Positions 1 through 44,893 of a DNA stretch of 64,000 bases are shown piece by piece; positions within the stretch are counted from its first letter, which is position 1, and every line of letters begins with the position of its first letter. Position numbers and translations under genes: made by a program. Below the pieces are notes generated by a model. The model searched no databases and was not told the DNA's origin. It saw nothing but the letters and a program-made list of their open reading frames with translations. Origin of the DNA: an uncultured Candidatus Saccharibacteria bacterium (GTDB taxonomy: Bacteria > Patescibacteriota > SICC01); the NCBI GenBank assembly GCA_964476895.1, contig CAYZCS010000001.1:1351-65350 (forward strand), in the 5' to 3' direction.

Positions 1-29
1 CACTGCGCGGCCGGAAATTGCTCAACCTT

Positions 30-917
30 TCAGAAAAGCTGATCATCGGCAGTACTGAAGCGCGCCTTTTCCATAAAGTCCGCGTTTTCATGAAACTGCC
101 CCTCGTTATCAATAAAACCAGCACAGTATCTCGGGTTAATGAGATCGTCGACACGGCTTCCATCGGCATCAACCTTCGGAAGATAAAAGTCAGCTGGAAG
201 TGTATCCTCGTTCTGAGAAATCACCTCCCGAGCCGGCGACAACTCACTTTCCTGCGTCGGAAAAGCAAAGACAAATCTCCCGATCTTGGACGTGCCGTAG
301 TACCCACTCACTAAAGCCCGCCCCGTATAATCTGGGTCGGTATCAGCAATCGACTCGTCAATAAAGAGCAGGCGTTGTTCGGGATTATAATTCCCCATGG
401 GCAGCCCGCCTTCGCCCGCCAAAAGTGTTTCAGCCTCTTCGAGAGAGCTGGCAAGCAACTGATTCAGTCCGAGTGCATACCGCCCATCCACTTTACGATC
501 GAGCCTATCTGGCAGCTTTCCGCCGAAGAGCTCTCCGGCCGAAGCCTCAAGGTTTTCTCTTATCCGTGAATTATCTACGACCTCCCTACTCTCCGCGATG
601 AAGGAACGATCCTGGTCCAGTTCTTTCCGGCGTTGTTCGGATAATCCACCCCACCACTCACTGAATGACTCGAAACCAGGATCTCCGGGCTTGGGTTCTC
701 CGGAATAAATGTAGAGATCTGCATTCTCCAGGTCGCGCTCCTCCTCTTCCGAGCGTTCGGGCTCACCCAACAGATCCTCCATCCCTGCATCTAGATCAAA
801 ACCCTGACCTGTTTCGGCCGTAACCTCAGGAGGTACGCCTCTTTCATTTTCATTCCCGTCCGGTAATCTGCGCATGTTTGTATTCAGTAAATTGATTAAA
901 TTTACCACAATTATCAC
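30..917 (-). CDS. hypothetical acidic protein (stop is near the left window edge; lies in a lower-GC, ~48%, segment)
   Basis: 295-aa ORF from the track; Asp/Glu-rich; no recognisable motif; composition differs from the core genome. Confidence 0.45.
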   Translation of the reverse strand: MIIVVNLINLLNTNMRRLPDGNENERGVPPEVTAETGQGFDLDAGMEDLLGEPERSEEEERDLENADLYIYSGEPKPGDPGFESFSEWWGGLSEQRRKELDQDRSFIAESREVVDNSRIRENLEASAGELFGGKLPDRLDRKVDGRYALGLNQLLASSLEEAETLLAGEGGLPMGNYNPEQRLLFIDESIADTDPDYTGRALVSGYYGTSKIGRFVFAFPTQESELSPAREVISQNEDTLPADFYLPKVDADGSRVDDLINPRYCAGFIDNEGQFHENADFMEKARFSTADDQLF

Positions 918-978
918 GCTTTTTCAAGGTTTCATGAAAGCTGGGCGACTTATGCCTGTGCAACACCCATAGAGCAAC

Positions 979-1341
979 CTAGGTTCCCATTGATGAGTAA
1001 TATCTGTCGGCCTCTGCGACCACTTTGTCACCATGTCCGGCCCTGAAATGATCAAGCCGGGGCTTAAGGTGGGCAGTGCTGTGTTCGAGCCAGAGACGCA
1101 CACCCTCTGATCCCAGACCTCCATACAAAGCCATGCCTATGCGATATAACTTTTCCGGTGCACCAGGATCTATGCTCCTGAGTTCTTCGATCTCTGCCTG
1201 ATCCAGGCCGGTCAGGGTAACACTGTCAGCTAAGATGTCGCCGGTCAGGTCTGGCTTGGGAGGAGGCTCGATCTCTACATACGCCGGAGCACCCTGCTCA
1301 AGGAGCTCAAACGCCGCCTGCCTTAGATCCTCTCTAGCCAT
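979..1341 (-). CDS. hypothetical protein
   Basis: 120-aa ORF, no recognisable motif; sits between the left low-GC gene and the tRNA-Trp repeat. Confidence 0.4.
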   Translation of the reverse strand: MAREDLRQAAFELLEQGAPAYVEIEPPPKPDLTGDILADSVTLTGLDQAEIEELRSIDPGAPEKLYRIGMALYGGLGSEGVRLWLEHSTAHLKPRLDHFRAGHGDKVVAEADRYYSSMGT

Positions 1342-1363
1342 GGTCCCAGCATTATACCTCTTC

Positions 1364-1404
1364 TGCAGAGCGGAGGGATTCGTACCCCCGACACCGGGCT
1401 TTGA
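1364..1404 (-). repeat. imperfect direct repeat of the 3' half of tRNA-Trp (T-arm plus part of the anticodon stem); att-like scar or pseudo-tRNA fragment
   Basis: tgcagagcggagggattcgtacccccgacaccgggctttg versus tgcaggggtggagggattcgaacccccgacaccgggttttg at 1963-2003 (about 35/41 identical, same orientation); it does not fold into a complete cloverleaf, and the T-loop is TACGAAT rather than TTCGAAT. Confidence 0.6.
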
Positions 1405-1424
1405 AGCCTCTGGTTGTTAAGCCG

Positions 1425-1943
1425 CTATCTGACTACGGCGAATGCCCTGACCGGACTACCGTCACCATCAGTGATTTTCAGAGGCATGCCGAAGAACTCG
1501 AACCTTTCTGGAAGCTCCTCGGTGTTAGAGAGCCTCTCAAAGAGTAAAACGTCGTGCTCAAGAAGGAACTTCTCGACCGATTCATCCGCCTCTTTGCTCA
1601 ATCCAATAAACTTAGGGCGCGAGGGTAAGATTTGCTTTGCGATTTCCATGGTTAATGCTTCTCGAAATACTACGCCGGTTTCAGGACCAACGTCGACACC
1701 TGGCTTGTAGATTACGGCGTTCCCGCAAAATTCGGCGAGATCGTAATCATCGAGCAATCTCCCGTTTTCCACGCAGTGGACTTGGGCATTCACGTGCGTC
1801 CCATCATGAGCATTGAGGTGAAGCCGCTTCATGTTCCATTCATCCTTAGCAATCGTATGGAGTTGTTCGATGTCTACCTCTGGGTCTCCGGGGTACACGA
1901 ACATCCCCTGCTGAATCGGGACTGATAGGTCGATGATCTTCAT
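1425..1943 (-). CDS. cyclase-family protein (kynurenine formamidase-like)
   Basis: HDGTHVNAQVH resembles the cyclase-family HxGTHxDxPxH motif; start taken at the internal ATG (MKIIDLS) because the longer GTG-start ORF would overlap the tRNA. Confidence 0.55.
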   Translation of the reverse strand: MKIIDLSVPIQQGMFVYPGDPEVDIEQLHTIAKDEWNMKRLHLNAHDGTHVNAQVHCVENGRLLDDYDLAEFCGNAVIYKPGVDVGPETGVVFREALTMEIAKQILPSRPKFIGLSKEADESVEKFLLEHDVLLFERLSNTEELPERFEFFGMPLKITDGDGSPVRAFAVVR

Positions 1944-1964
1944 GGTTTGAGCATTGAGATACTG

Positions 1965-2038
1965 CAGGGGTGGAGGGATTCGAACCCCCGACACCGGGTT
2001 TTGGAGACCCGTGCTCTGCCAGACTGAGCTACACCCCT
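1965..2038 (-). tRNA. tRNA-Trp (anticodon CCA)
   Basis: reverse complement folds as a cloverleaf: acceptor AGGGGTG/CACCCCT, anticodon loop CTCCAAA, T-loop GGTTCGAATCC, discriminator G. Confidence 0.85.
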
Positions 2039-2111
2039 AAATCGCGTAGCGCTCCCCCATTATGGCACTACGAGCGCACCGCGTGCACTCGCCCCACCCA
2101 CTCCGCGTGAG

Positions 2112-2273
2112 CTACTTCGTCTCTTTGTGCAGCGTGTGCTTGCCGCAGCGCGAGCAATGCTTCTTCAGCTCCAAGCGGTCTTGCGTAGTCCGCCGGTTCT
2201 TGGTCGTGTGGTAGTTGTGCTCCTTGCACGCCGTGCATTCGAGCGTGATCACTGGTCGGATGTCCTTAGCCAT
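2112..2273 (-). CDS. rpmG: 50S ribosomal protein L33
   Basis: 53-aa ORF below the track cutoff: [53 protein letters not shown], the classical L33 zinc-ribbon sequence. Confidence 0.85.
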
Positions 2274-2299
2274 ACCAGGTTACGATACCATGGAATCGC

Positions 2300-2373
2300 G
2301 CCGCCTTAGCTCAGTTGGCCAGAGCAACTGTTTTGTAAACAGTAGGTCCTCGGTTCGAATCCGAGAGGCGGCT
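2300..2373 (+). tRNA. tRNA-Thr (anticodon TGT)
   Basis: GCCGCCT acceptor, anticodon stem ACTGT/ACAGT with loop TTTGTAA, T-loop GGTTCGAATCC, short variable loop. Confidence 0.85.
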
Positions 2374-3128
2374 CAGCGCCGGTCGGAATCCATGGTGACA
2401 CCCTCACCATCGGGAAGCTGCATCAACCTATCGAGCATGGACTGGTAGCTCTTGTTGTCAAAGAAAAGCTGTTCCCGTACTTTCGCCTCGACCTCTTCCG
2501 TGCCGATCGCGATCTCCAGTTGAGGAGGACTATCGCCACCACCCGGCGTCCTGAGGATATCGCCCCTATTGACCCGAACCGGTACATCCAAGGCGCCTTC
2601 CAGCGGACAATCTTTTGGCCATGCGAACTTGCCCGGTCTCTTCGTCGTCAATGAACCTGCGCGAACACCATGGTCACTCCCTGCACGGATATAACCGGCA
2701 CTCCCTGCACAGACATAAGAATCGGTAGGGAATCCCCACTGACCCTGTTCGCCAATGACCAGTTCCGGTCTTGCCAGGATGCCCAGGCCCATGCGCTCCA
2801 CAACGTATGGGTCTTGCCACCCCTTACCGAATACGTGTGTCTGATATTCAACTCCGCGCGAGATCACCAGTACCGGTTCATTGACGTGCGCCGCCACGCG
2901 CTCTTCGAGTGAACGGAACAAGTCTACTGCCTCTTGGTCGAGTCCATGGTTCCGGTGGATCACGTGATCAACCAGCCGGTCGCCGGTGGTTTCGCCGGCA
3001 TGTATCCGGTCATATAATTCCCGATTCTTTCCGTCGTATATCGCAAACTGGGCTTCGCGGTTCGCCTCCGCAGCTACGGCTTCGGCCCGCGCTGCTTCGA
3101 TTTCACCTAGATCGATCGGACGACTCAT
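2373..3128 (-). CDS. hypothetical protein
   Basis: 251-aa ORF with ATG start; no motif recognised; its stop abuts the tRNA-Thr 3' end. Confidence 0.5.
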   Translation of the reverse strand: MSRPIDLGEIEAARAEAVAAEANREAQFAIYDGKNRELYDRIHAGETTGDRLVDHVIHRNHGLDQEAVDLFRSLEERVAAHVNEPVLVISRGVEYQTHVFGKGWQDPYVVERMGLGILARPELVIGEQGQWGFPTDSYVCAGSAGYIRAGSDHGVRAGSLTTKRPGKFAWPKDCPLEGALDVPVRVNRGDILRTPGGGDSPPQLEIAIGTEEVEAKVREQLFFDNKSYQSMLDRLMQLPDGEGVTMDSDRR

Positions 3129-3191
3129 AAATGGTAACTCCCTGTTAGTAACCAGCCAGTGTAGCAGAAAAATATTCCTTTGCGGCTACTG

Positions 3192-3275
3192 TGCTGGGAG
3201 AGGGATTCGAACCCCCGAAGGCATAAAGCCAGCAGATTTACAGTCTGCCCCGTTTGGCCGCTTCGGTATCCCAGC
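3192..3275 (-). tRNA. tRNA-Tyr (anticodon GTA), class II with long variable arm
   Basis: reverse complement GCTGGGATACCGAAGCGGCCAAACGGGGCAGACTGTAAATCTGC...GGGGGTTCGAATCCCTCTCCCAGCA. Confidence 0.85.
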
Positions 3276-3298
3276 AAGTTGTTAATCGATCGCCCCTG

Positions 3299-3371
3299 AG
3301 CCGAGACCGGGATTCGAACCCGGGACCTCATCCTTACCATGGATGCGCTCTGCCAGCTGAGCTATCTCGGC
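3299..3371 (-). tRNA. tRNA-Thr (anticodon GGT)
   Basis: reverse complement GCCGAGATAGCTCAGCTGGCAGAGCGCATCCATGGTAAGGATGAGGTCCCGGGTTCGAATCCCGGTCTCGGCT. Confidence 0.85.
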
Positions 3372-3420
3372 GTACCATACCATTGTAAACAAACTCGTGC
3401 CCAACGCCTGCCGATTGAAC

Positions 3421-28645: not shown

Positions 28646-29353
28646 ATGCCTTATCCAGAGCTGTCCGCTTATAGCCAAGAAGACCCTCCCGACCGCTTTC
28701 AACATCGACTGGAAGACGATGTACTACGCACTTGCTTCGGCGAGCGTTCCGGTTATTTCCGAACTGAGATAAATCGGTCAATCGATTGCTATGCAATGGA
28801 TTTCTGTGAAAACGCTTCTTTGCTGCGTGAAGCACGGAAGCATCTCGAGGAGACAGGGAGCATCGCGGTCTTGGACGTGGGTTGTGGCACAGGCCAAGCG
28901 CTATGGAGTTTCCGAGAGTATCTTACACGCCGTGACGACTACGAACCGGACGATCGGCTCACCTTGGTGGGCATCAACATAGACGATTTTCGCAACGAAG
29001 CGGAGAGATGGAAACCCCGTAAAGCAATCAAGGAAGGAATCATTGATTACATTGTCGGTGATGCGCGGATCGTGACGCCACGTCAGGAATTCGACATCAT
29101 TTTTTGCTACGAGGTGCTGATCCACATGTCCGATGAGGATGCGGCGGCGGTCCTTCGAAACACAGAACGAGCGCTTAAGCCGGGCGGCACCATGTACTTC
29201 GGATTCCATCTCGAGCAACTTGAAAGTGAAACGATTGCCGAATACCTCAGGGAACTGAGAGGGTCGGGTGAGGTAGCGGAAAATCTCGTAGAGAATGAAT
29301 TCAGCACGACACGTGCGTTCGTGACGTTTAAGAAAGCCGCCTCCGACCATTGA
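28646..29353 (+). CDS. class I SAM-dependent methyltransferase (small-molecule type)
   Basis: VLDVGCGTGQ motif I; no DNA-MTase DPPY/NPPF motif; GC about 50%. Confidence 0.6.
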   Translation: MPYPELSAYSQEDPPDRFQHRLEDDVLRTCFGERSGYFRTEINRSIDCYAMDFCENASLLREARKHLEETGSIAVLDVGCGTGQALWSFREYLTRRDDYEPDDRLTLVGINIDDFRNEAERWKPRKAIKEGIIDYIVGDARIVTPRQEFDIIFCYEVLIHMSDEDAAAVLRNTERALKPGGTMYFGFHLEQLESETIAEYLRELRGSGEVAENLVENEFSTTRAFVTFKKAASDH

Positions 29354-29386: not shown

Positions 29387-29820
29387 GGGGATGCACCGGA
29401 TTCGACGGTGGCGTACCTTGACAGGTTGCCGGCCGAGGACGAACGCTCACCTCGCTAATCACGCGTTCAACGGCATTACAACTGCCAACTTCAAAGAGAA
29501 GCTTAGCGGTGTTGTCGCTTCCGCCCGGGAAAGCATTGCTTCCCTGAGCGATGCGTTCGCCCCGCGACAGCTCTCTCCCATCCGGGCGTAATACCCCGGA
29601 TCGTGCCCGCGCGAGCGCCCGGCTCGCACGGTAGCGCGTCATACTCCGGGCTCATCCGGATTCCCTAGTCTCAGGAAATTCGGAGACACGTTTGAGACTG
29701 GGTAGGCTGCGTTTCGTCCGCTTTCGAGCAGCCTGCTGACAGCAAAAAGTGGACTATGCCGGTAGATCGCCTTTCAACGGTCTCCATCGGACGGGGGTTC
29801 GACTCCCCCCATCTCCACCA
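29387..29820 (+). ncRNA. ssrA: tmRNA (transfer-messenger RNA)
   Basis: 5' GGGGATGCACCGGATTCGACGG pairs with 3' ...GGACGGGGGTTCGACTCCCCCCATCTCCACCA (tRNA-like domain, T-arm, CCA encoded); the tag frame is not resolvable with confidence. Confidence 0.8.
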
Positions 29821-30064
29821 AGCGGCTCTCTGAGCTCACCGGCAATACGCTTGCCGTAAGAAAAATAGCTTTGGAAAGAGATTGGATCGAGAATCACTAC
29901 TGCTCGCAAGAAACGCGATACTTAGGAGCAGCTAGAAAGGAGTTGCCAGTACCTATGCCGGTTTCATTGAGCAAGAATGGCGGCGACTCACTGTTGCAAC
30001 ATTAAGAGACTGACAAAAAGGCCCTGGCATAAAGCTCGAAGATATTTTCAAAGTCTTGTAGCAT

Positions 30065-32023
30065 CTACACGCTAGTCACCTGCTCAACCAGATCCTCTGC
30101 TGTGGCTTCTTTCGATATTTTCTTTTTTTGAAATTCAAGTTGTTTTAGCACAAAATCTAACCGCAAATTCACTTCTGTAAAAATTTCACTCCAGGTTTTT
30201 ACGTAAATTTCATAGTTGTCGACACTCTGAATAAGTGATTTCTTGCCATGAACTTTGGCACTTTTTTGCTCTCGTTTTATATAACCCGAGGTGTCAAATT
30301 TGTTCCCCACTAGATAAAACTCCCACTTCATATTTGGAGCATTAAATTCACTCTGCTCAAGAATGACCCCCATGTACTTTTTAACCTGATCCAGCTCTTT
30401 GGCTCCGAGCCTAACCGTAGGCTTTTTGAGTTCCACCACGATGTTATGAATCTCATCATTTTCTTTTAGCTGTCGACAAAGAAATATATCCATTTGCTTA
30501 CGCTTGTCTGGATGGTCAATTTTGACGTTCTTCTTTTCGTCTCGTAAAAGATATAAGTACCGACGAAGAGCCTCTTCAAATACTGGCTCTGCCTCTGTGA
30601 CTAGATGGAATCTTTCCCCAAAAATCCAATAAGACGAAGCTACGATTGTTTGAACATGCGGCACTTCTTTAGCTCTAACATTGTCGTCAAAAACAAGTTT
30701 CTTTAGAGCCTGCAAGTCTTTGTTTCGTCTCTCAAGCATTCGAGTCGTCGCGACCATGCGTGACATATTTGTACTTTGCAGAAGCTCAGCCAATTCCCTG
30801 CGCTCGCTTCTATCAAGATCTACTATTTCCTCAATAATTTTTAGTAGATTTTCCGTTTCATTAGTGTCGATTAAGAGATTCAATAAGCCAACAAAGGTCT
30901 TTTTTTGCTCAATGTTGAGTGTAGAAAAAATTTTAGGCTCGAGCTTGTAGAGGTCCTTAACTAAAACCTGAAGATGCTCTTTTCTAATTTGGTCAAATTC
31001 AGACTCAAGCTCCGGAAAGACCTTTTCGCTCTCATACTCTTTTACTAGATTGTCTGCATTGGTTTTTAGGAAAGGCTTTCTCAACTTTCTCAAATACCCC
31101 GAGAGTTCCTTCTGAAGAAACTTAAACTCAGGACTTGAACGATCAACCCCTATCAAAGTAGATTGATTTTTCTTTTCCTTTCCAAAGCCAAAGTTATCAA
31201 AGAACGAGGATTTGATGTAAACACTGTGATAAAAATCATCACCTTTTCTGTTCAAAGTAGTAAATTCTTTCCACTTTTCTTTATCTTTGGAGTCAATGTA
31301 GTAATACTGCGACCACTCCTTATTTAGACTTTCCTTCCATCGAACGTATGAGATATGAAACTTTGTATTGCTCTCTTCGTGAGTGAACTCTGTTTCCTTT
31401 CTGTCTCCAATCAATGCTGTGTAATCCAGCTCTTCTCCATTAATAAGAATCTTGAACGCTTTACTTTTATTTAGCTCTAAAAACCATCCAAACTCTCTTA
31501 CGAGGAAAGGTTGTAACTCTTGCTCGATCTGCGTTCTCGTAAAATCAAATATTGACGAAAGTATTACTTCTGTCCCTGGTTTTTCAGTAGTGATTTTTGG
31601 AGTCGTCGGATTAAAGAGATCGAGTCGTTTTGAATCAGCCTTAATCCGATACTTATGCCTCTTGCCAGCCTTCTTGTACACCGTTTCCCATGAAGCTTCA
31701 TTAGCAAACTTAAAGAAAGTTAGTCTGCCTACACCAGTTCGTCCGTGCAGTTGAGATTGATTGAAAGTTTTTTCGGCAAATTTCTCGGAATCATGAAATC
31801 TCCGAAATTTTTCTTCGAGCTTTGAGTGATCAATTCCATATCCATTGTCACGAATAGTGATAGAAGAAAGGTTGCCTATCGCATTACTATCAAATTCCAG
31901 TTCGACTTTGGTTGCATTGGCATCAAAGCCATTCCAAATGTACTCAGCAAGGGATCGATTTCTATCATAATTATCAAGAACCTGCTTGATACCCACCGAG
32001 GTAATTCGAACGCTTTTGCTCAT
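30065..32023 (-). CDS. GHKL-family ATPase (MORC/HATPase_c_3-like N-domain) with a C-terminal PD-(D/E)xK-like nuclease module
   Basis: Bergerat-fold boxes: N-box EYIWNGFDA, G1 IRDNGYGI, G2 HGRTGVGRL; C-terminal MDIFL...IVVELKKP (D...ExK pattern); 652 aa; 38% GC. Confidence 0.65.
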   Translation of the reverse strand: MSKSVRITSVGIKQVLDNYDRNRSLAEYIWNGFDANATKVELEFDSNAIGNLSSITIRDNGYGIDHSKLEEKFRRFHDSEKFAEKTFNQSQLHGRTGVGRLTFFKFANEASWETVYKKAGKRHKYRIKADSKRLDLFNPTTPKITTEKPGTEVILSSIFDFTRTQIEQELQPFLVREFGWFLELNKSKAFKILINGEELDYTALIGDRKETEFTHEESNTKFHISYVRWKESLNKEWSQYYYIDSKDKEKWKEFTTLNRKGDDFYHSVYIKSSFFDNFGFGKEKKNQSTLIGVDRSSPEFKFLQKELSGYLRKLRKPFLKTNADNLVKEYESEKVFPELESEFDQIRKEHLQVLVKDLYKLEPKIFSTLNIEQKKTFVGLLNLLIDTNETENLLKIIEEIVDLDRSERRELAELLQSTNMSRMVATTRMLERRNKDLQALKKLVFDDNVRAKEVPHVQTIVASSYWIFGERFHLVTEAEPVFEEALRRYLYLLRDEKKNVKIDHPDKRKQMDIFLCRQLKENDEIHNIVVELKKPTVRLGAKELDQVKKYMGVILEQSEFNAPNMKWEFYLVGNKFDTSGYIKREQKSAKVHGKKSLIQSVDNYEIYVKTWSEIFTEVNLRLDFVLKQLEFQKKKISKEATAEDLVEQVTSV

Positions 32024-32060
32024 ACGAGTATCTTACCAGTCAGACTTTTGCGATTTTCTT

Positions 32061-33080
32061 TCATGATTCAAATTTCCCAATCTCGGCATACCAATCAATT
32101 GTATCTACCAAATCTAGATCGCACGGCACAGGATTATCCTCGATAAATTTAGCCTCAAAATACTGGTTCCAGTAAGCTTCGGCTGATCGCCGAGGATGGT
32201 TTGCAAGCCACGAATCAAAGTAGTCGAAGTGAACGTCGTAGTGGTGTGTATGCATGAAGTCGTCCCACGTACCTTGCAACTGGTCAGCATCAGCACCTGG
32301 TCGGGCAATAATCTCGAACTGCTCAAATTCACGTTTTTCTTTTGAGCCCCAGCCCTTTTTTAGCTGCTCCATCGCTGCTACATCCGAATCTGGCGCGCGA
32401 TAACCAAAAACCGTTACCCATGCCGCGGATTTTAGTGCTTCCGTTAGACGCAGCCACTCGCTGGCGATAAACGGATTTTCCTCATAATTCTTCTCGTTGA
32501 CCGGATACAACAAGGGCACAGGACTGAAAGTTTTCTTGCAAACACTACAATTATTCCCAACTGTTCCGGCAATCCGATCTTTCTCGCATATCCCAACCAT
32601 GACATTGCCATGAAGAAACGCTAGCGGCGGCCGCGACAAAGTCCTCCGGCCACTTCTTGCGTAAGCTTGCATTAAAAGCGGATCCCAATTGAAGCTGGCA
32701 ATTAAGTCCTTATCTCGAAGTGACAAAATAAGGTGATCGTAGATTGTCGGATCATCTGGAATCTGGAAGCGCTCGTAATATTCATGAATGGCTTCATCTA
32801 TCTTGTCTGCAATCTCCGCTTTCGACCGATCCAACCGTAGATCTGAATAGGCAGACTCAAAATCCTCAACGTCGCCTAAGCCAGCCTCTTCCAGCAGAGG
32901 AGCAACAGTTTCTATTTTCGATAGACCTTTCATGTCAGTCGGTCGCTTCCCGTTCCTGTCTCCATTAGGCAGAGCAGCAATACTTGCGCCGGCGCCGAGA
33001 ATTACAACATGTGGCTTACCGGCAAAAGGCTTTTCAACCTCTTGCTCTTTAGTAACTTCAGAACCAGATGACGCTGCCAT
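32061..33080 (-). CDS. SIR2-like (sirtuin/DHS-like NAD-binding fold) protein
   Basis: VVILGAGASIA (GAGxS), FNWDPLL (TTNYD-like), LAFLHGN (catalytic HG), Cys-x12-Cys-x2-Cys, VTVFGYRAPDSD; 37 bp upstream of the GHKL gene on the same strand. Confidence 0.65.
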   Translation of the reverse strand: MAASSGSEVTKEQEVEKPFAGKPHVVILGAGASIAALPNGDRNGKRPTDMKGLSKIETVAPLLEEAGLGDVEDFESAYSDLRLDRSKAEIADKIDEAIHEYYERFQIPDDPTIYDHLILSLRDKDLIASFNWDPLLMQAYARSGRRTLSRPPLAFLHGNVMVGICEKDRIAGTVGNNCSVCKKTFSPVPLLYPVNEKNYEENPFIASEWLRLTEALKSAAWVTVFGYRAPDSDVAAMEQLKKGWGSKEKREFEQFEIIARPGADADQLQGTWDDFMHTHHYDVHFDYFDSWLANHPRRSAEAYWNQYFEAKFIEDNPVPCDLDLVDTIDWYAEIGKFES

Positions 33081-33124
33081 GCGCTAATCATAACTTTACC
33101 CGCGTCTGATTGCCGACTGCCGGT

Positions 33125-39091: not shown

Positions 39092-39976
39092 GTGGGAATG
39101 AAAAGGTTCAAACATACGACGGTATCCGCACTGGTTGCCGCTTTGGCGATCGGTTTTCCGGCGCAGGCCCTGGCCCAAGAGGCTCCGGTAGAACTCGGCA
39201 CCACCGAGGACTTCGCGGTCTTGGCCGGCACCGAGATCACCAACGTCCCCACTTCCGACATCACCGGAGACGTGGGCCTGAGCCCGGGCACCGGTGCCGC
39301 GATTACCGGACTGACCTGCGCGGAGGTGACCGGTACGATCTACGACGTTGACGGTACGTATCCGGACACCTGCGAGGTAACCGATCCCGCCCTGCTGACG
39401 ACGGCCAAAAACGACCTGGTTACGGCATATGACGATGCCGCCGGACGCACGCCGACCGAGACGTTCGCCGGCGGCGACAACCAGCTCGGCGGACAGACGC
39501 TGACCTCCGGCGTCTACGCGTTCGGCGCCGCGTCGACCGCCAACCTGGTCGGCACGCTGACGCTTAACGGCCAGAACGACCCGGATGCGGTATGGATCTT
39601 CCAGGCCTCATCCACCCTGGTAACGGCATCGAGCAGCGTGGTGAGTCTCACCAACGGCGCCCAAGCCTGCAACGTCTTCTGGCAGGTTGGCAGTTCCGCC
39701 ACGCTCGGATCCGACTCCGTGTTCGTCGGGACCATCATGGCCCTCACTTCCATCGGGTTGGATACCGGCGCCACCATCAACGGGGGCCAGGCGCTGGCAC
39801 GTGACGGCGCGGTCACCCTGGACCAGAACGTCATCACCGACTCGGCATGTGCGCTCTCCGAGCCCCCCGACGACGATGATGGTGATGACACGGACTCCGG
39901 TTCTGACACCGGCTCACTCGCCGCCGGCGATATCGTTCCCAAGCTACCGAACGCCGGAGCCGGTCCTCGCAACTAG
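39092..39976 (+). CDS. secreted DUF3494 (ice-binding-like) domain protein ending in an LPNAG sortase-like motif
   Basis: signal peptide MKRFKHTTVSALVAALAIGFPAQALA; DUF3494-like repeats (FAVLAGTEITN...GDVGLSPGTG); C-terminus ...KLPNAGAGPRN-stop with no hydrophobic anchor. Confidence 0.6.
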   Translation: MGMKRFKHTTVSALVAALAIGFPAQALAQEAPVELGTTEDFAVLAGTEITNVPTSDITGDVGLSPGTGAAITGLTCAEVTGTIYDVDGTYPDTCEVTDPALLTTAKNDLVTAYDDAAGRTPTETFAGGDNQLGGQTLTSGVYAFGAASTANLVGTLTLNGQNDPDAVWIFQASSTLVTASSSVVSLTNGAQACNVFWQVGSSATLGSDSVFVGTIMALTSIGLDTGATINGGQALARDGAVTLDQNVITDSACALSEPPDDDDGDDTDSGSDTGSLAAGDIVPKLPNAGAGPRN

Positions 39977-39994
39977 GACACGCCCTGCCAAGAT

Positions 39995-40591
39995 ATGCCT
40001 GCGGATAAGCCAGTTCGTCGCCGGATCTTCGCAGCCGTGATCGGCGTAGCGCTGGCCGGAGCGCTGGTCTCGTTCGGGTTGCTCGGATTGCTCGGGCCGT
40101 TCCGAACCGATTCGCCGCCGCGTACCGCCGAAACCACGGCGGTTCAGGTGGGCGTGCCGGTGCACCTGGAAATCCCGAAGATCGGGGTGGATGCGGCGAT
40201 CGAGCTTACCGGCCTGACGCGTCAGGGATTGATGGGCGTCCCGAAAGACCCCGACAACGCCGCCTGGTACAAGCACGGGCCGCGCCCCGGTGAGATAGGG
40301 AGCGCGGTGATCGACGGGCACTTCGACTGGGACAACGGGACCCCCGCGGTGTTCGATGATCTCCACAAGCTGCGGCCCGGCGACAAAGTGATGGTTACGG
40401 ACCGGCACGGCACGATCATCTCGTTCGTCGTGCGGAAGTCCCGGAACTATAGTCCGGAGGCAGATGCCACCAGCGTGTTCCGTTCCAGCGACGGGAAAGC
40501 CCACCTCAACCTGATCACCTGCACCGGCGTGTGGAACCAGGATCGAGACAGCTACTCACAACGTCTCGTGGTGTTCTCCGATCGGGAATAG
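39995..40591 (+). CDS. sortase (class E/F-like transpeptidase)
   Basis: N-terminal signal anchor, LEIPKIGV, catalytic His region, TLITCTG catalytic Cys motif. Confidence 0.75.
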   Translation: MPADKPVRRRIFAAVIGVALAGALVSFGLLGLLGPFRTDSPPRTAETTAVQVGVPVHLEIPKIGVDAAIELTGLTRQGLMGVPKDPDNAAWYKHGPRPGEIGSAVIDGHFDWDNGTPAVFDDLHKLRPGDKVMVTDRHGTIISFVVRKSRNYSPEADATSVFRSSDGKAHLNLITCTGVWNQDRDSYSQRLVVFSDRE

Positions 40592-42239: not shown

Positions 42240-42387
42240 CTGCCGCACCGCACCGTCCCCGCCCGGAACCACTCCTCATCAAGGAGCCGGGCGGGGACTT
42301 TTGCTGTACCCAAAGAGTAAGATGCGGATAGCCGCGACGGGAAAGCCCGACGCCACGGTCGAAGTCTGATCTGCCCCAGCGGTCCGC

Positions 42388-44557: not shown

Positions 44558-44893
44558 TCCTGTAGTCGCCCGCGTCACACCCGTCCCCGTCCGGAACCAC
44601 TTCTTTTTTAGAAGCCGGACGGGGACCTTTGCTATATCGACTTACGAGTACGTCTTTGCGCTTTATCTGCCTTCCGTCAACAGCTACCTCTTGCCCAGTT
44701 TGAGTCCGCTAGCATATCATGCATTATGGCCTTTACAAAGCGATTTATTTACGATACGATTCGAGGCCGATTAGCACGTTAACATCCGCACCGGAGAGCT
44801 CAGCGAGCGTACACCGTGCGCCTGATGAGCTCTCCGTTGCTGCTGCGGCCGAGCACCACTACACGACATCCAGCAGCCGAAAGGAAAGTCATC

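Follow-up and report, generated by a model that had tools for sequence, protein, structure and literature searches.

A low-GC block at the ssrA 3' end of a Candidatus Saccharibacteria genome probably holds two independent single-gene modules, a SIR2-like protein and a paraMORC3-type GHKL-nuclease

Immediately downstream of ssrA, the gene for the transfer-messenger RNA (tmRNA), a 64,000-nucleotide stretch of DNA from an uncultured Candidatus Saccharibacteria bacterium (contig CAYZCS010000001.1; this whole stretch is called the window below) contains a low-GC block, at positions 29821–33120, with two co-directional genes on the minus strand. The upstream gene encodes a SIR2-like protein of 339 aa (32061–33080), and the downstream gene a protein of 652 aa in which a GHKL-type ATPase is combined with a PD-(D/E)xK nuclease (30065–32023). 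Both open reading frames (ORFs), 37 bp apart, exist exactly as described in an original prediction made from the sequence, which had taken the two genes for a candidate defence pair. Our analysis points instead to a small degraded islet at an ssrA hotspot, probably made up of two single-gene modules that are independent of each other and adjacent in this genome only. In its architecture the 652-aa protein corresponds to paraMORC3, which has been filed as Shedu type I-D, and the 339-aa protein belongs to a family for which no name, profile or test was found in the libraries and literature searched.

Co-occurrence of the two genes

The association between the two genes was evaluated in 183 fetched loci (2.48 Mb in total), of which 97 contained a homologue of the SIR2-like gene and 86 one of the GHKL gene, and not a single locus contained both. 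A GHKL homologue was encoded in none of the 80 SIR2-like genome loci (±10 kb), and a SIR2-like homologue in none of the 81 GHKL metagenome loci. When the count was restricted to loci with sufficient flanking sequence, that is, 83 SIR2-like loci with 2.2 kb or more downstream and 66 GHKL loci with 1.2 kb or more upstream, the two families were again never found together (0/83 and 0/66), which puts the one-sided 95% upper bound for their co-occurrence at 3.5–4.4%. The partner was also absent beside the closest sampled relatives of either gene (60% and 53% identity). Likewise, none of the loci contained the other genes of the island in the window, namely orf151, orf175 and those encoding a haloacid dehalogenase (HAD) hydrolase, an inositol monophosphatase, a pentapeptide-repeat protein and a methyltransferase. 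The claim of one two-gene system fails on these counts (0/97 and 0/86), and the pairing of the SIR2-like and GHKL genes is an accident of neighbourhood, not a real unit. The two genes also differ by 9 points in GC content (0.386 for the GHKL gene and 0.475 for the SIR2-like gene).

What weighs against this reading is the arrangement of the genes, which lie in the same direction and are separated by a gap of only 37 bp (32024–32060, minus strand) without a promoter-like site, so that a local functional link is conceivable and the two genes may be co-transcribed in this genome. Neither a promoter-like nor a terminator-like match, nor a clear Shine–Dalgarno sequence, was found in the gap, the promoter and terminator scans being uninformative in that their counts were not above those of shuffled sequence. 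Co-directionality is nevertheless a weak argument for pairing, because all minus-strand genes as far as 38.1 kb are co-directional and separated by short gaps.

The ssrA locus and base composition

The gene ssrA is found at 29387–29820 on the plus strand and was confirmed by Rfam (RF00023, 151.8 bits, model positions 1–374 of 374), as had been proposed; ARAGORN made no call for it. The gene is full length, and its 3' end (...TCCACCA) can be read intact in the sequence. Its 434 nt exceed the 374-position Rfam model by about 60 nt. ssrA forms the left boundary of the low-GC DNA, which is foreign and starts exactly at its 3' end. A spacer of 244 bp (29821–30064, GC 0.46), without an att-like repeat, separates this end from the stop codon of the GHKL gene, and both the GHKL gene and the SIR2-like gene are convergent with ssrA. 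The low GC content that had been attributed to the block is real, but the value of about 38% fits the GHKL gene alone, since the block as a whole is at 0.421, compared with 0.65–0.69 for the flanking core genes and a mean of 0.62 for the window.

Foreign, low-GC DNA that begins at the ssrA 3' end is a feature shared with the genomic islands that target tmRNA genes. The block differs from these islands in having neither an integrase nor a duplicated attachment (att) site, in its GC mosaic and in the low GC content that is also present upstream of ssrA. As had been noted previously, no integrase and no second att repeat could be found: no integrase family was matched among the ORFs scanned (26.9–43.7 kb), the 25-nt 3' end of ssrA occurs only once in the window, even when up to 3 mismatches are allowed, and a direct repeat search of the window gave no relevant repeat that would bound the island. 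The block is likely horizontally acquired and defence-related in character, and a degraded island at ssrA.

The reduced GC content at third codon positions (GC3) runs on to about 37.3 kb, so that the foreign DNA extends beyond the block and appears to be a mosaic. On the other side of ssrA, a gene for a SAM (S-adenosylmethionine)-dependent methyltransferase located just upstream (28646–29353, plus strand) has a GC content of 0.52 and a GC3 of 0.56, while the diaminopimelate-decarboxylase-like gene adjoining it has a GC3 of 0.85; because this upstream methyltransferase gene is also of low GC, foreign-looking DNA is present on both sides of ssrA. Beyond the block, on the minus strand between 33125 and 38102, GC3 changes stepwise, with values of 0.59 for orf151, 0.65 for orf175, 0.71 for the HAD hydrolase, 0.77 for the inositol monophosphatase, 0.67 for the pentapeptide-repeat protein, 0.58 for GrpB and 0.79 for an alpha/beta hydrolase. 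The genes of this stretch are all co-directional and look like a mosaic of accessory genes, and for orf151 and orf175 there was neither a family match nor a homologue in any fetched locus.

The SIR2-like protein

The 339-aa protein is matched by no model of Pfam, NCBIfam or PADLOC, even at E ≤ 10 in the case of Pfam, where both SIR2 (PF02146) and SIR2_2 (PF13289) failed to match, and PHROGs gave a marginal match over 17 residues. A hidden Markov model (HMM) profile of the family returned noise against the PDB sequences, and the alignment by hhalign with one SIR2_2 protein, although it placed the N/D and His motifs in register, was weak (probability 29%, E 6e-4). The assignment to SIR2 holds all the same, by fold and by conserved catalytic motifs. 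An AlphaFold (AF2) model was obtained with a predicted local distance difference test (pLDDT) score of 89.8 and a predicted template modelling (pTM) score of 0.90, and Foldseek gave matches to sirtuins and to ThsA with E values of 1e-8 to 1e-6, the best structural matches being defence NADases. The Rossmann core (32301–33017, minus strand; residues ~22–260), of the sirtuin type, contains the GAGxS loop (GAGAS, 29–33), the N/D motif (FNWD 130–133, with N131 and D133), the LHG motif (156–158), with His157 at the catalytic position, and the FGY..P..D motif (225–233). The protein is therefore a member of the SIR2 superfamily at the level of fold, and GAGAS, N131, D133 and H157 are invariant among its homologues. 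Two of its motifs, xxNWD and xGYSxxD, are like those of a SIR2_2-type protein in Pfam and unlike the GTS-type motif that marks classical sirtuins. The identity to classical sirtuins (CobB, Sir2Tm, SIRT1-7) and to SirTM is 11–18%.

After the catalytic His, a putative Zn ribbon (32538–32588, minus strand) is formed by C165-x2-(D/H)168 and C178-x2-C181, in which all three Cys positions are occupied by Cys in 36/36 sequences and position 168 is D in 27, H in 7 and another residue in 2. The C-terminal module (32064–32300, minus strand; residues ~261–339) contains the invariant residues W272, H279-H280, H295-P-R-R298 and E301, and the stretch with these residues (HH...HPRR..E) is specific to the family; the module is a candidate regulatory or sensor part.

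The family is large, with more than 3416 homologues. When 1.84 billion representatives were searched with HMMER without filters, 1626 clusters (50% identity) were found at E ≤ 1e-3, of which 456 reached E ≤ 1e-30; the length was 320–355 aa for nearly all of the 150 clusters listed. Its members are distributed patchily over many bacterial phyla, lineages of the candidate phyla radiation (CPR), methanogens and Asgard archaea, and 17 IMG/VR contigs carry homologues. Because no model matched in Pfam, NCBIfam, PADLOC 2023 or PHROGs, domain-centric screens would miss the family. A few longer members (430–540 aa) carry extensions (P0436/P0427 and P0380/P0404). Two kinds of extension were seen more than once, at the N-terminus of one protein and at the C-terminus of another (43% identity over 90 aa and 24% over 84 aa), and they may represent partner domains that are occasionally fused or adjacent, or else gene calls that were merged.

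The SIR2 NADases of known defence systems, such as SIR2-HerA (Nezha), KomC of Kongming, ThsA of Thoeris and Avs5, have a partner or a fused sensor, unlike the 339-aa protein, which has the Zn-ribbon-like module and the family-specific C-terminal module and no SLOG or STAND fusion. Three of these systems were considered as identities and rejected. For Nezha, no HerA-type family was found among the window ORFs scanned near the genes, nor among the recurrent neighbour Pfam families. For ThsA, there was no SLOG match in the 339 aa, no TIR gene beside the gene and no recurrent TIR neighbour. Kongming is defined by an operon of KomC with KomA (adenosine deaminase) and KomB (HAM1-like), and neighbours of the KomA or KomB type were absent from the window and not recurrent in 78 loci.

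In 5 of the 7 contexts of SIR2-like genes annotated with Pfam, the 5 kb around the gene included Mrr, a nuclease of the OLD family, a type IIG enzyme, an operon for type III restriction-modification (R-M) or an integrase. The recurrent neighbours were Peptidase_S24 (5), ResIII and HNH_5 (3 each), and Eco57I, MmeI, N6_N4_Mtase, integrase and SIR2_2 (2 each). Neither family has a conserved partner. For the SIR2-like family the largest neighbour cluster, present in 6 of 78 loci, is accounted for by related genomes, and a conserved small ORF (30–130 aa) was found beside neither this family nor the GHKL family, beyond the synteny of close genomes. The median GC content of the genes is about 7 points below that of their flanks in both families, and both behave as mobile genes tied to defence islands.

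On a metagenome contig (L190, 2297–6910), the SIR2-like gene starts 29 bp after a type III-like Res gene and is itself followed, at 9–16 bp, by two small ORFs without annotation. The operon is tightly packed, and an N6_N4 methyltransferase lies upstream. In the metagenome-assembled genome of an actinomycete (L010, 3079–4236), a canonical SIR2_2-type protein (GAGIS, TTNWDP, HG, GYSMRDPD) is encoded two genes from the SIR2-like gene, and because of it there are two different SIR2 proteins in one neighbourhood.

The 339-aa protein is a stand-alone SIR2-fold protein of the defence-NADase type that, by analogy with the SIR2 proteins of defence, most likely consumes NAD+ through N131, D133 and H157 once triggered, with the conserved His/Arg-rich C-terminal module as the candidate regulator of this consumption. 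It is possible, though we propose it only tentatively, that these proteins constitute an undescribed single-gene immune family of stand-alone SIR2 NADases, with no HerA, SLOG, STAND, pAgo (prokaryotic Argonaute) or HAM1 partner, in which the C-terminal module and the Zn ribbon sense infection and switch on NAD+ depletion. Several observations weigh against a role in defence. Two of the seven annotated contexts are ordinary, one of them being a TetR/ChrB region and the other a pur operon, which is housekeeping; the neighbours are heterogeneous, with 140 Pfam families among 150 neighbour proteins; and the Zn ribbon is kept, as it is in deacylase sirtuins.

An alternative is that the protein is a deacylase or an ADP-ribosyltransferase, of the sirtuin or SirTM-like kind, with a regulatory or metabolic function and only incidentally on mobile DNA. 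We consider this unlikely. The motifs are of the SIR2_2 type and not of the GTS type, and the best structural matches are to enzymes of defence. Moreover, the patchy spread in bacteria, CPR and archaea, the median GC content 7 points under that of the flanks, and the R-M genes, Mrr, OLD or integrase beside the gene in five of the seven contexts agree better with a mobile defence gene than with such a function.

The GHKL-nuclease

The 652-aa protein is composed of four regions, all on the minus strand. The Bergerat-fold ATPase domain (31544–32002; residues ~8–160) contains the N-box (E27/N31/D34), the G1 box D59-N-G-x-G63 (DNGYGI, 59–64) and the G2 box G94-x-x-G97-x-G99, and was matched by Pfam HATPase_c_3 (4.7e-20), which bears out the GHKL assignment. 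It is followed by a beta-rich middle domain (31148–31537; residues ~163–292), which is the equivalent of the transducer/S5 domain in MORC, MutL and Hsp90, and by a long helical linker (30677–31132; residues ~298–449), modelled with lower confidence. The C-terminal domain (30188–30676; residues ~450–612) is the PD-(D/E)xK nuclease that had been suspected, as indicated by its invariant E-D-ExK motif. Weak matches were also obtained with a PADLOC SduA model over residues 410–472 and with Pfam HSDR_N_2 over residues 497–554.

At least 1463 full-length homologues were found, with 45–53% identity and all of 650–690 aa, and the family corresponds to phrog_6203 in PHROGs. Invariant among them are E27, N31, D34, D59, G61, G63, G94, G97 and G99 in the ATPase domain, and E470, E479, D512, E531-L-K533 and Q546 in the C-terminal part. 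When plasmid-borne homologues of 24–30% identity were added, E470, D512, E531/K533 and Q546 stayed invariant, the invariance of E479 being restricted to the close family. Every motif that had been quoted for the two proteins is present, and the residues that make up these motifs are, with few exceptions, invariant in the homologues.

This organization, with an N-terminal GHKL domain carrying the ATP-binding motifs, a middle domain of the S5/transducer type and a C-terminal E-D-ExK nuclease, is that of paraMORC3, which was described as GHKL plus S5 plus, at the C-terminus, a restriction-endonuclease fold bearing E-D-ExK, passed on sporadically by lateral transfer and already noted as stand-alone genes (Iyer, Abhiman and Aravind 2008; PMC2292703). 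Shedu homologues with HATPase_c_3 and a linked middle domain were later reported by Gu et al. (preprint 10.1101/2023.08.10.552793). VcSduA of Vibrio cholerae (A1552VC_00276), a protein organized in this way, protects both E. coli and V. cholerae as a single gene, and its protection is lost in the ATPase mutant E27A and the nuclease mutant K557A; it protects at every multiplicity of infection tested, which fits a direct and not an abortive action (Adams et al. 2025; PMC12137116). The statement that the pair matches no named system therefore does not hold for its GHKL half, and the 652-aa protein is a fairly divergent new member of a kind predicted in 2008 and validated in 2025, not an undescribed one.

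Like paraMORC3 and VcSduA, it is one polypeptide of about 650–680 aa with GHKL, middle and nuclease domains, stand-alone or R-M-linked and sporadically distributed through lateral transfer, and its motif-I glutamate is at residue 27, as in VcSduA. It differs in the position of the catalytic Lys, 533 here and 557 in VcSduA, and is 24–26% identical to the sampled gammaproteobacterial subfamily (Salmonella, Vibrio, Klebsiella). Its family is, in addition, often found inside type I R-M operons, an association not seen reported for VcSduA. With canonical Shedu (SduA of Bacillus cereus and E. coli; DUF4263/PF14082), it shares a PD-(D/E)xK core and the proposed single-protein defence regulated by an N-terminal domain; the canonical protein, which according to the abstracts of the studies is a tetramer sensing DNA ends, lacks the GHKL domain, and sequence and structure searches gave no confident link between the nuclease domains.

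Some results weigh against the Shedu-type reading. The likeness to VcSduA is one of architecture and of E27 and does not establish orthology. The combination of E27 and K557 in the numbering of VcSduA occurs in no member of the two sampled subfamilies, and the gammaproteobacterial one (with a Salmonella seed) includes Vibrio species, with no V. cholerae member and no PF14082 annotation. Pfam SduA_C (PF14082) matched 1 of 34 members of the GHKL family (E 0.01) and left the nuclease domain of the window undetected, and the three PADLOC SduA models gave weak matches in 11, 7 and 1 of the 34 members (best 3.9e-5). The copy in the window also has two deviating positions in the ATP lid, K95R and N96T in GRTGVG, which are otherwise nearly invariant; these are its sole oddities, all the catalytic residues being intact.

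Other identities were rejected. The NCBIfam matches to the protein were all sub-threshold and N-terminal (BbrUII/HgiDII, MutL and MzaB). That to the restriction enzyme BbrUII/HgiDII (NF050001) reached 67.4 bits, against a cut-off of 550, with only region 25–215 aligned, and those to MzaB and MutL were N-box matches alone. The family HMM profile gave only weak MutL N-box matches against the PDB sequences, and noise for the nuclease domain.

From VcSduA and the general mechanics of GHKL proteins, together with the domains and motifs found here, a likely mechanism can be proposed by analogy. The protein would form a homodimer through its ATPase domains, with an ATP clamp made of the GHKL and middle domains. 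Binding and hydrolysis of ATP at E27/N31 would gate the clamp-like middle region and then license the nuclease, and the licensed PD-(D/E)xK site (D512, E531, K533) would cut invading DNA directly, so that DNA cleavage may be ATP-gated and the mode of defence non-abortive.

The GHKL homologues sit in defence islands. At least two of hsdR, hsdM and hsdS were present in 17 of 81 GHKL loci, compared with 2 of the 80 SIR2-like loci, which were used as internal control for R-M enrichment (Fisher p = 3.5e-4). Loci such as L098 and L099 have the GHKL gene placed between hsdR and hsdS, and the type I association was also seen in L095, L096, L081 and others. One context includes HEPN_AbiU2, ThsB_TIR and type I R-M, another an integrase with RelE/ParE, and on a Psychrobacter plasmid Drt2, Dcm and an LlaMI-type endonuclease are encoded near the homologue.

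These neighbourhoods are the reason for considering the GHKL-nuclease an accessory subunit of type I R-M, which here would be an inert orphan, as the window contains no Hsd homologue. We regard this as very unlikely. In about 79% of the GHKL loci type I genes are absent from the vicinity, paraMORC3 genes standing alone were recorded as early as 2008, VcSduA acts alone in E. coli, and the catalytic residues are all intact in the copy in the window. As for the original prediction of a new two-component system, in which the GHKL-nuclease senses or restricts DNA and the SIR2 protein depletes NAD+, it would be suited by the adjacency on one strand, by the lack of any promoter-like match in the gap and by two proteins that are both of a defence type, but it is extremely improbable in view of the absence of joint loci, the closest sampled relatives without partner, the unequal GC contents, a co-directionality that is not specific to the pair, and the fact that a protein with the GHKL-nuclease architecture acts alone (PMC12137116).

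Other features of the window

Outside the block, a GC-rich repeat of 56 nt with a hairpin (CCGTCCCCGCCCGG...CCGGGCGGGGAC) is present at 42253–42308 and 44581–44636. The two copies are 82% identical and 2.3 kb apart, and have the look of repetitive extragenic palindromes (REP-like) or of terminators. A protein with an ice-binding-like domain (PF11999, 1.3e-61) is encoded at 39092–40591 on the plus strand, with a sortase gene directly after it, and may thus be a surface protein that is anchored by sortase. A cluster of four tRNA genes (Trp, Thr, Tyr, Thr) is found at positions 1–3400 of the window, in a region of lower GC content (0.52–0.57).

Implications

As a pair, the two genes matter little, since they are chance neighbours and the GHKL-nuclease architecture was already known. 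The link of this GHKL-nuclease subfamily to type I R-M points to joint action with classical restriction, or to regulation in common with it. What may be new, and the one lead worth following, is the orphan SIR2 family alone, whose compact, partner-less proteins are often encoded beside R-M genes and integrases in many phyla, Asgard archaea included. If its members were indeed NADase sensors that act autonomously, no smaller SIR2 immune modules would be known, and it would have to be asked how infection can be sensed by a protein of this size.

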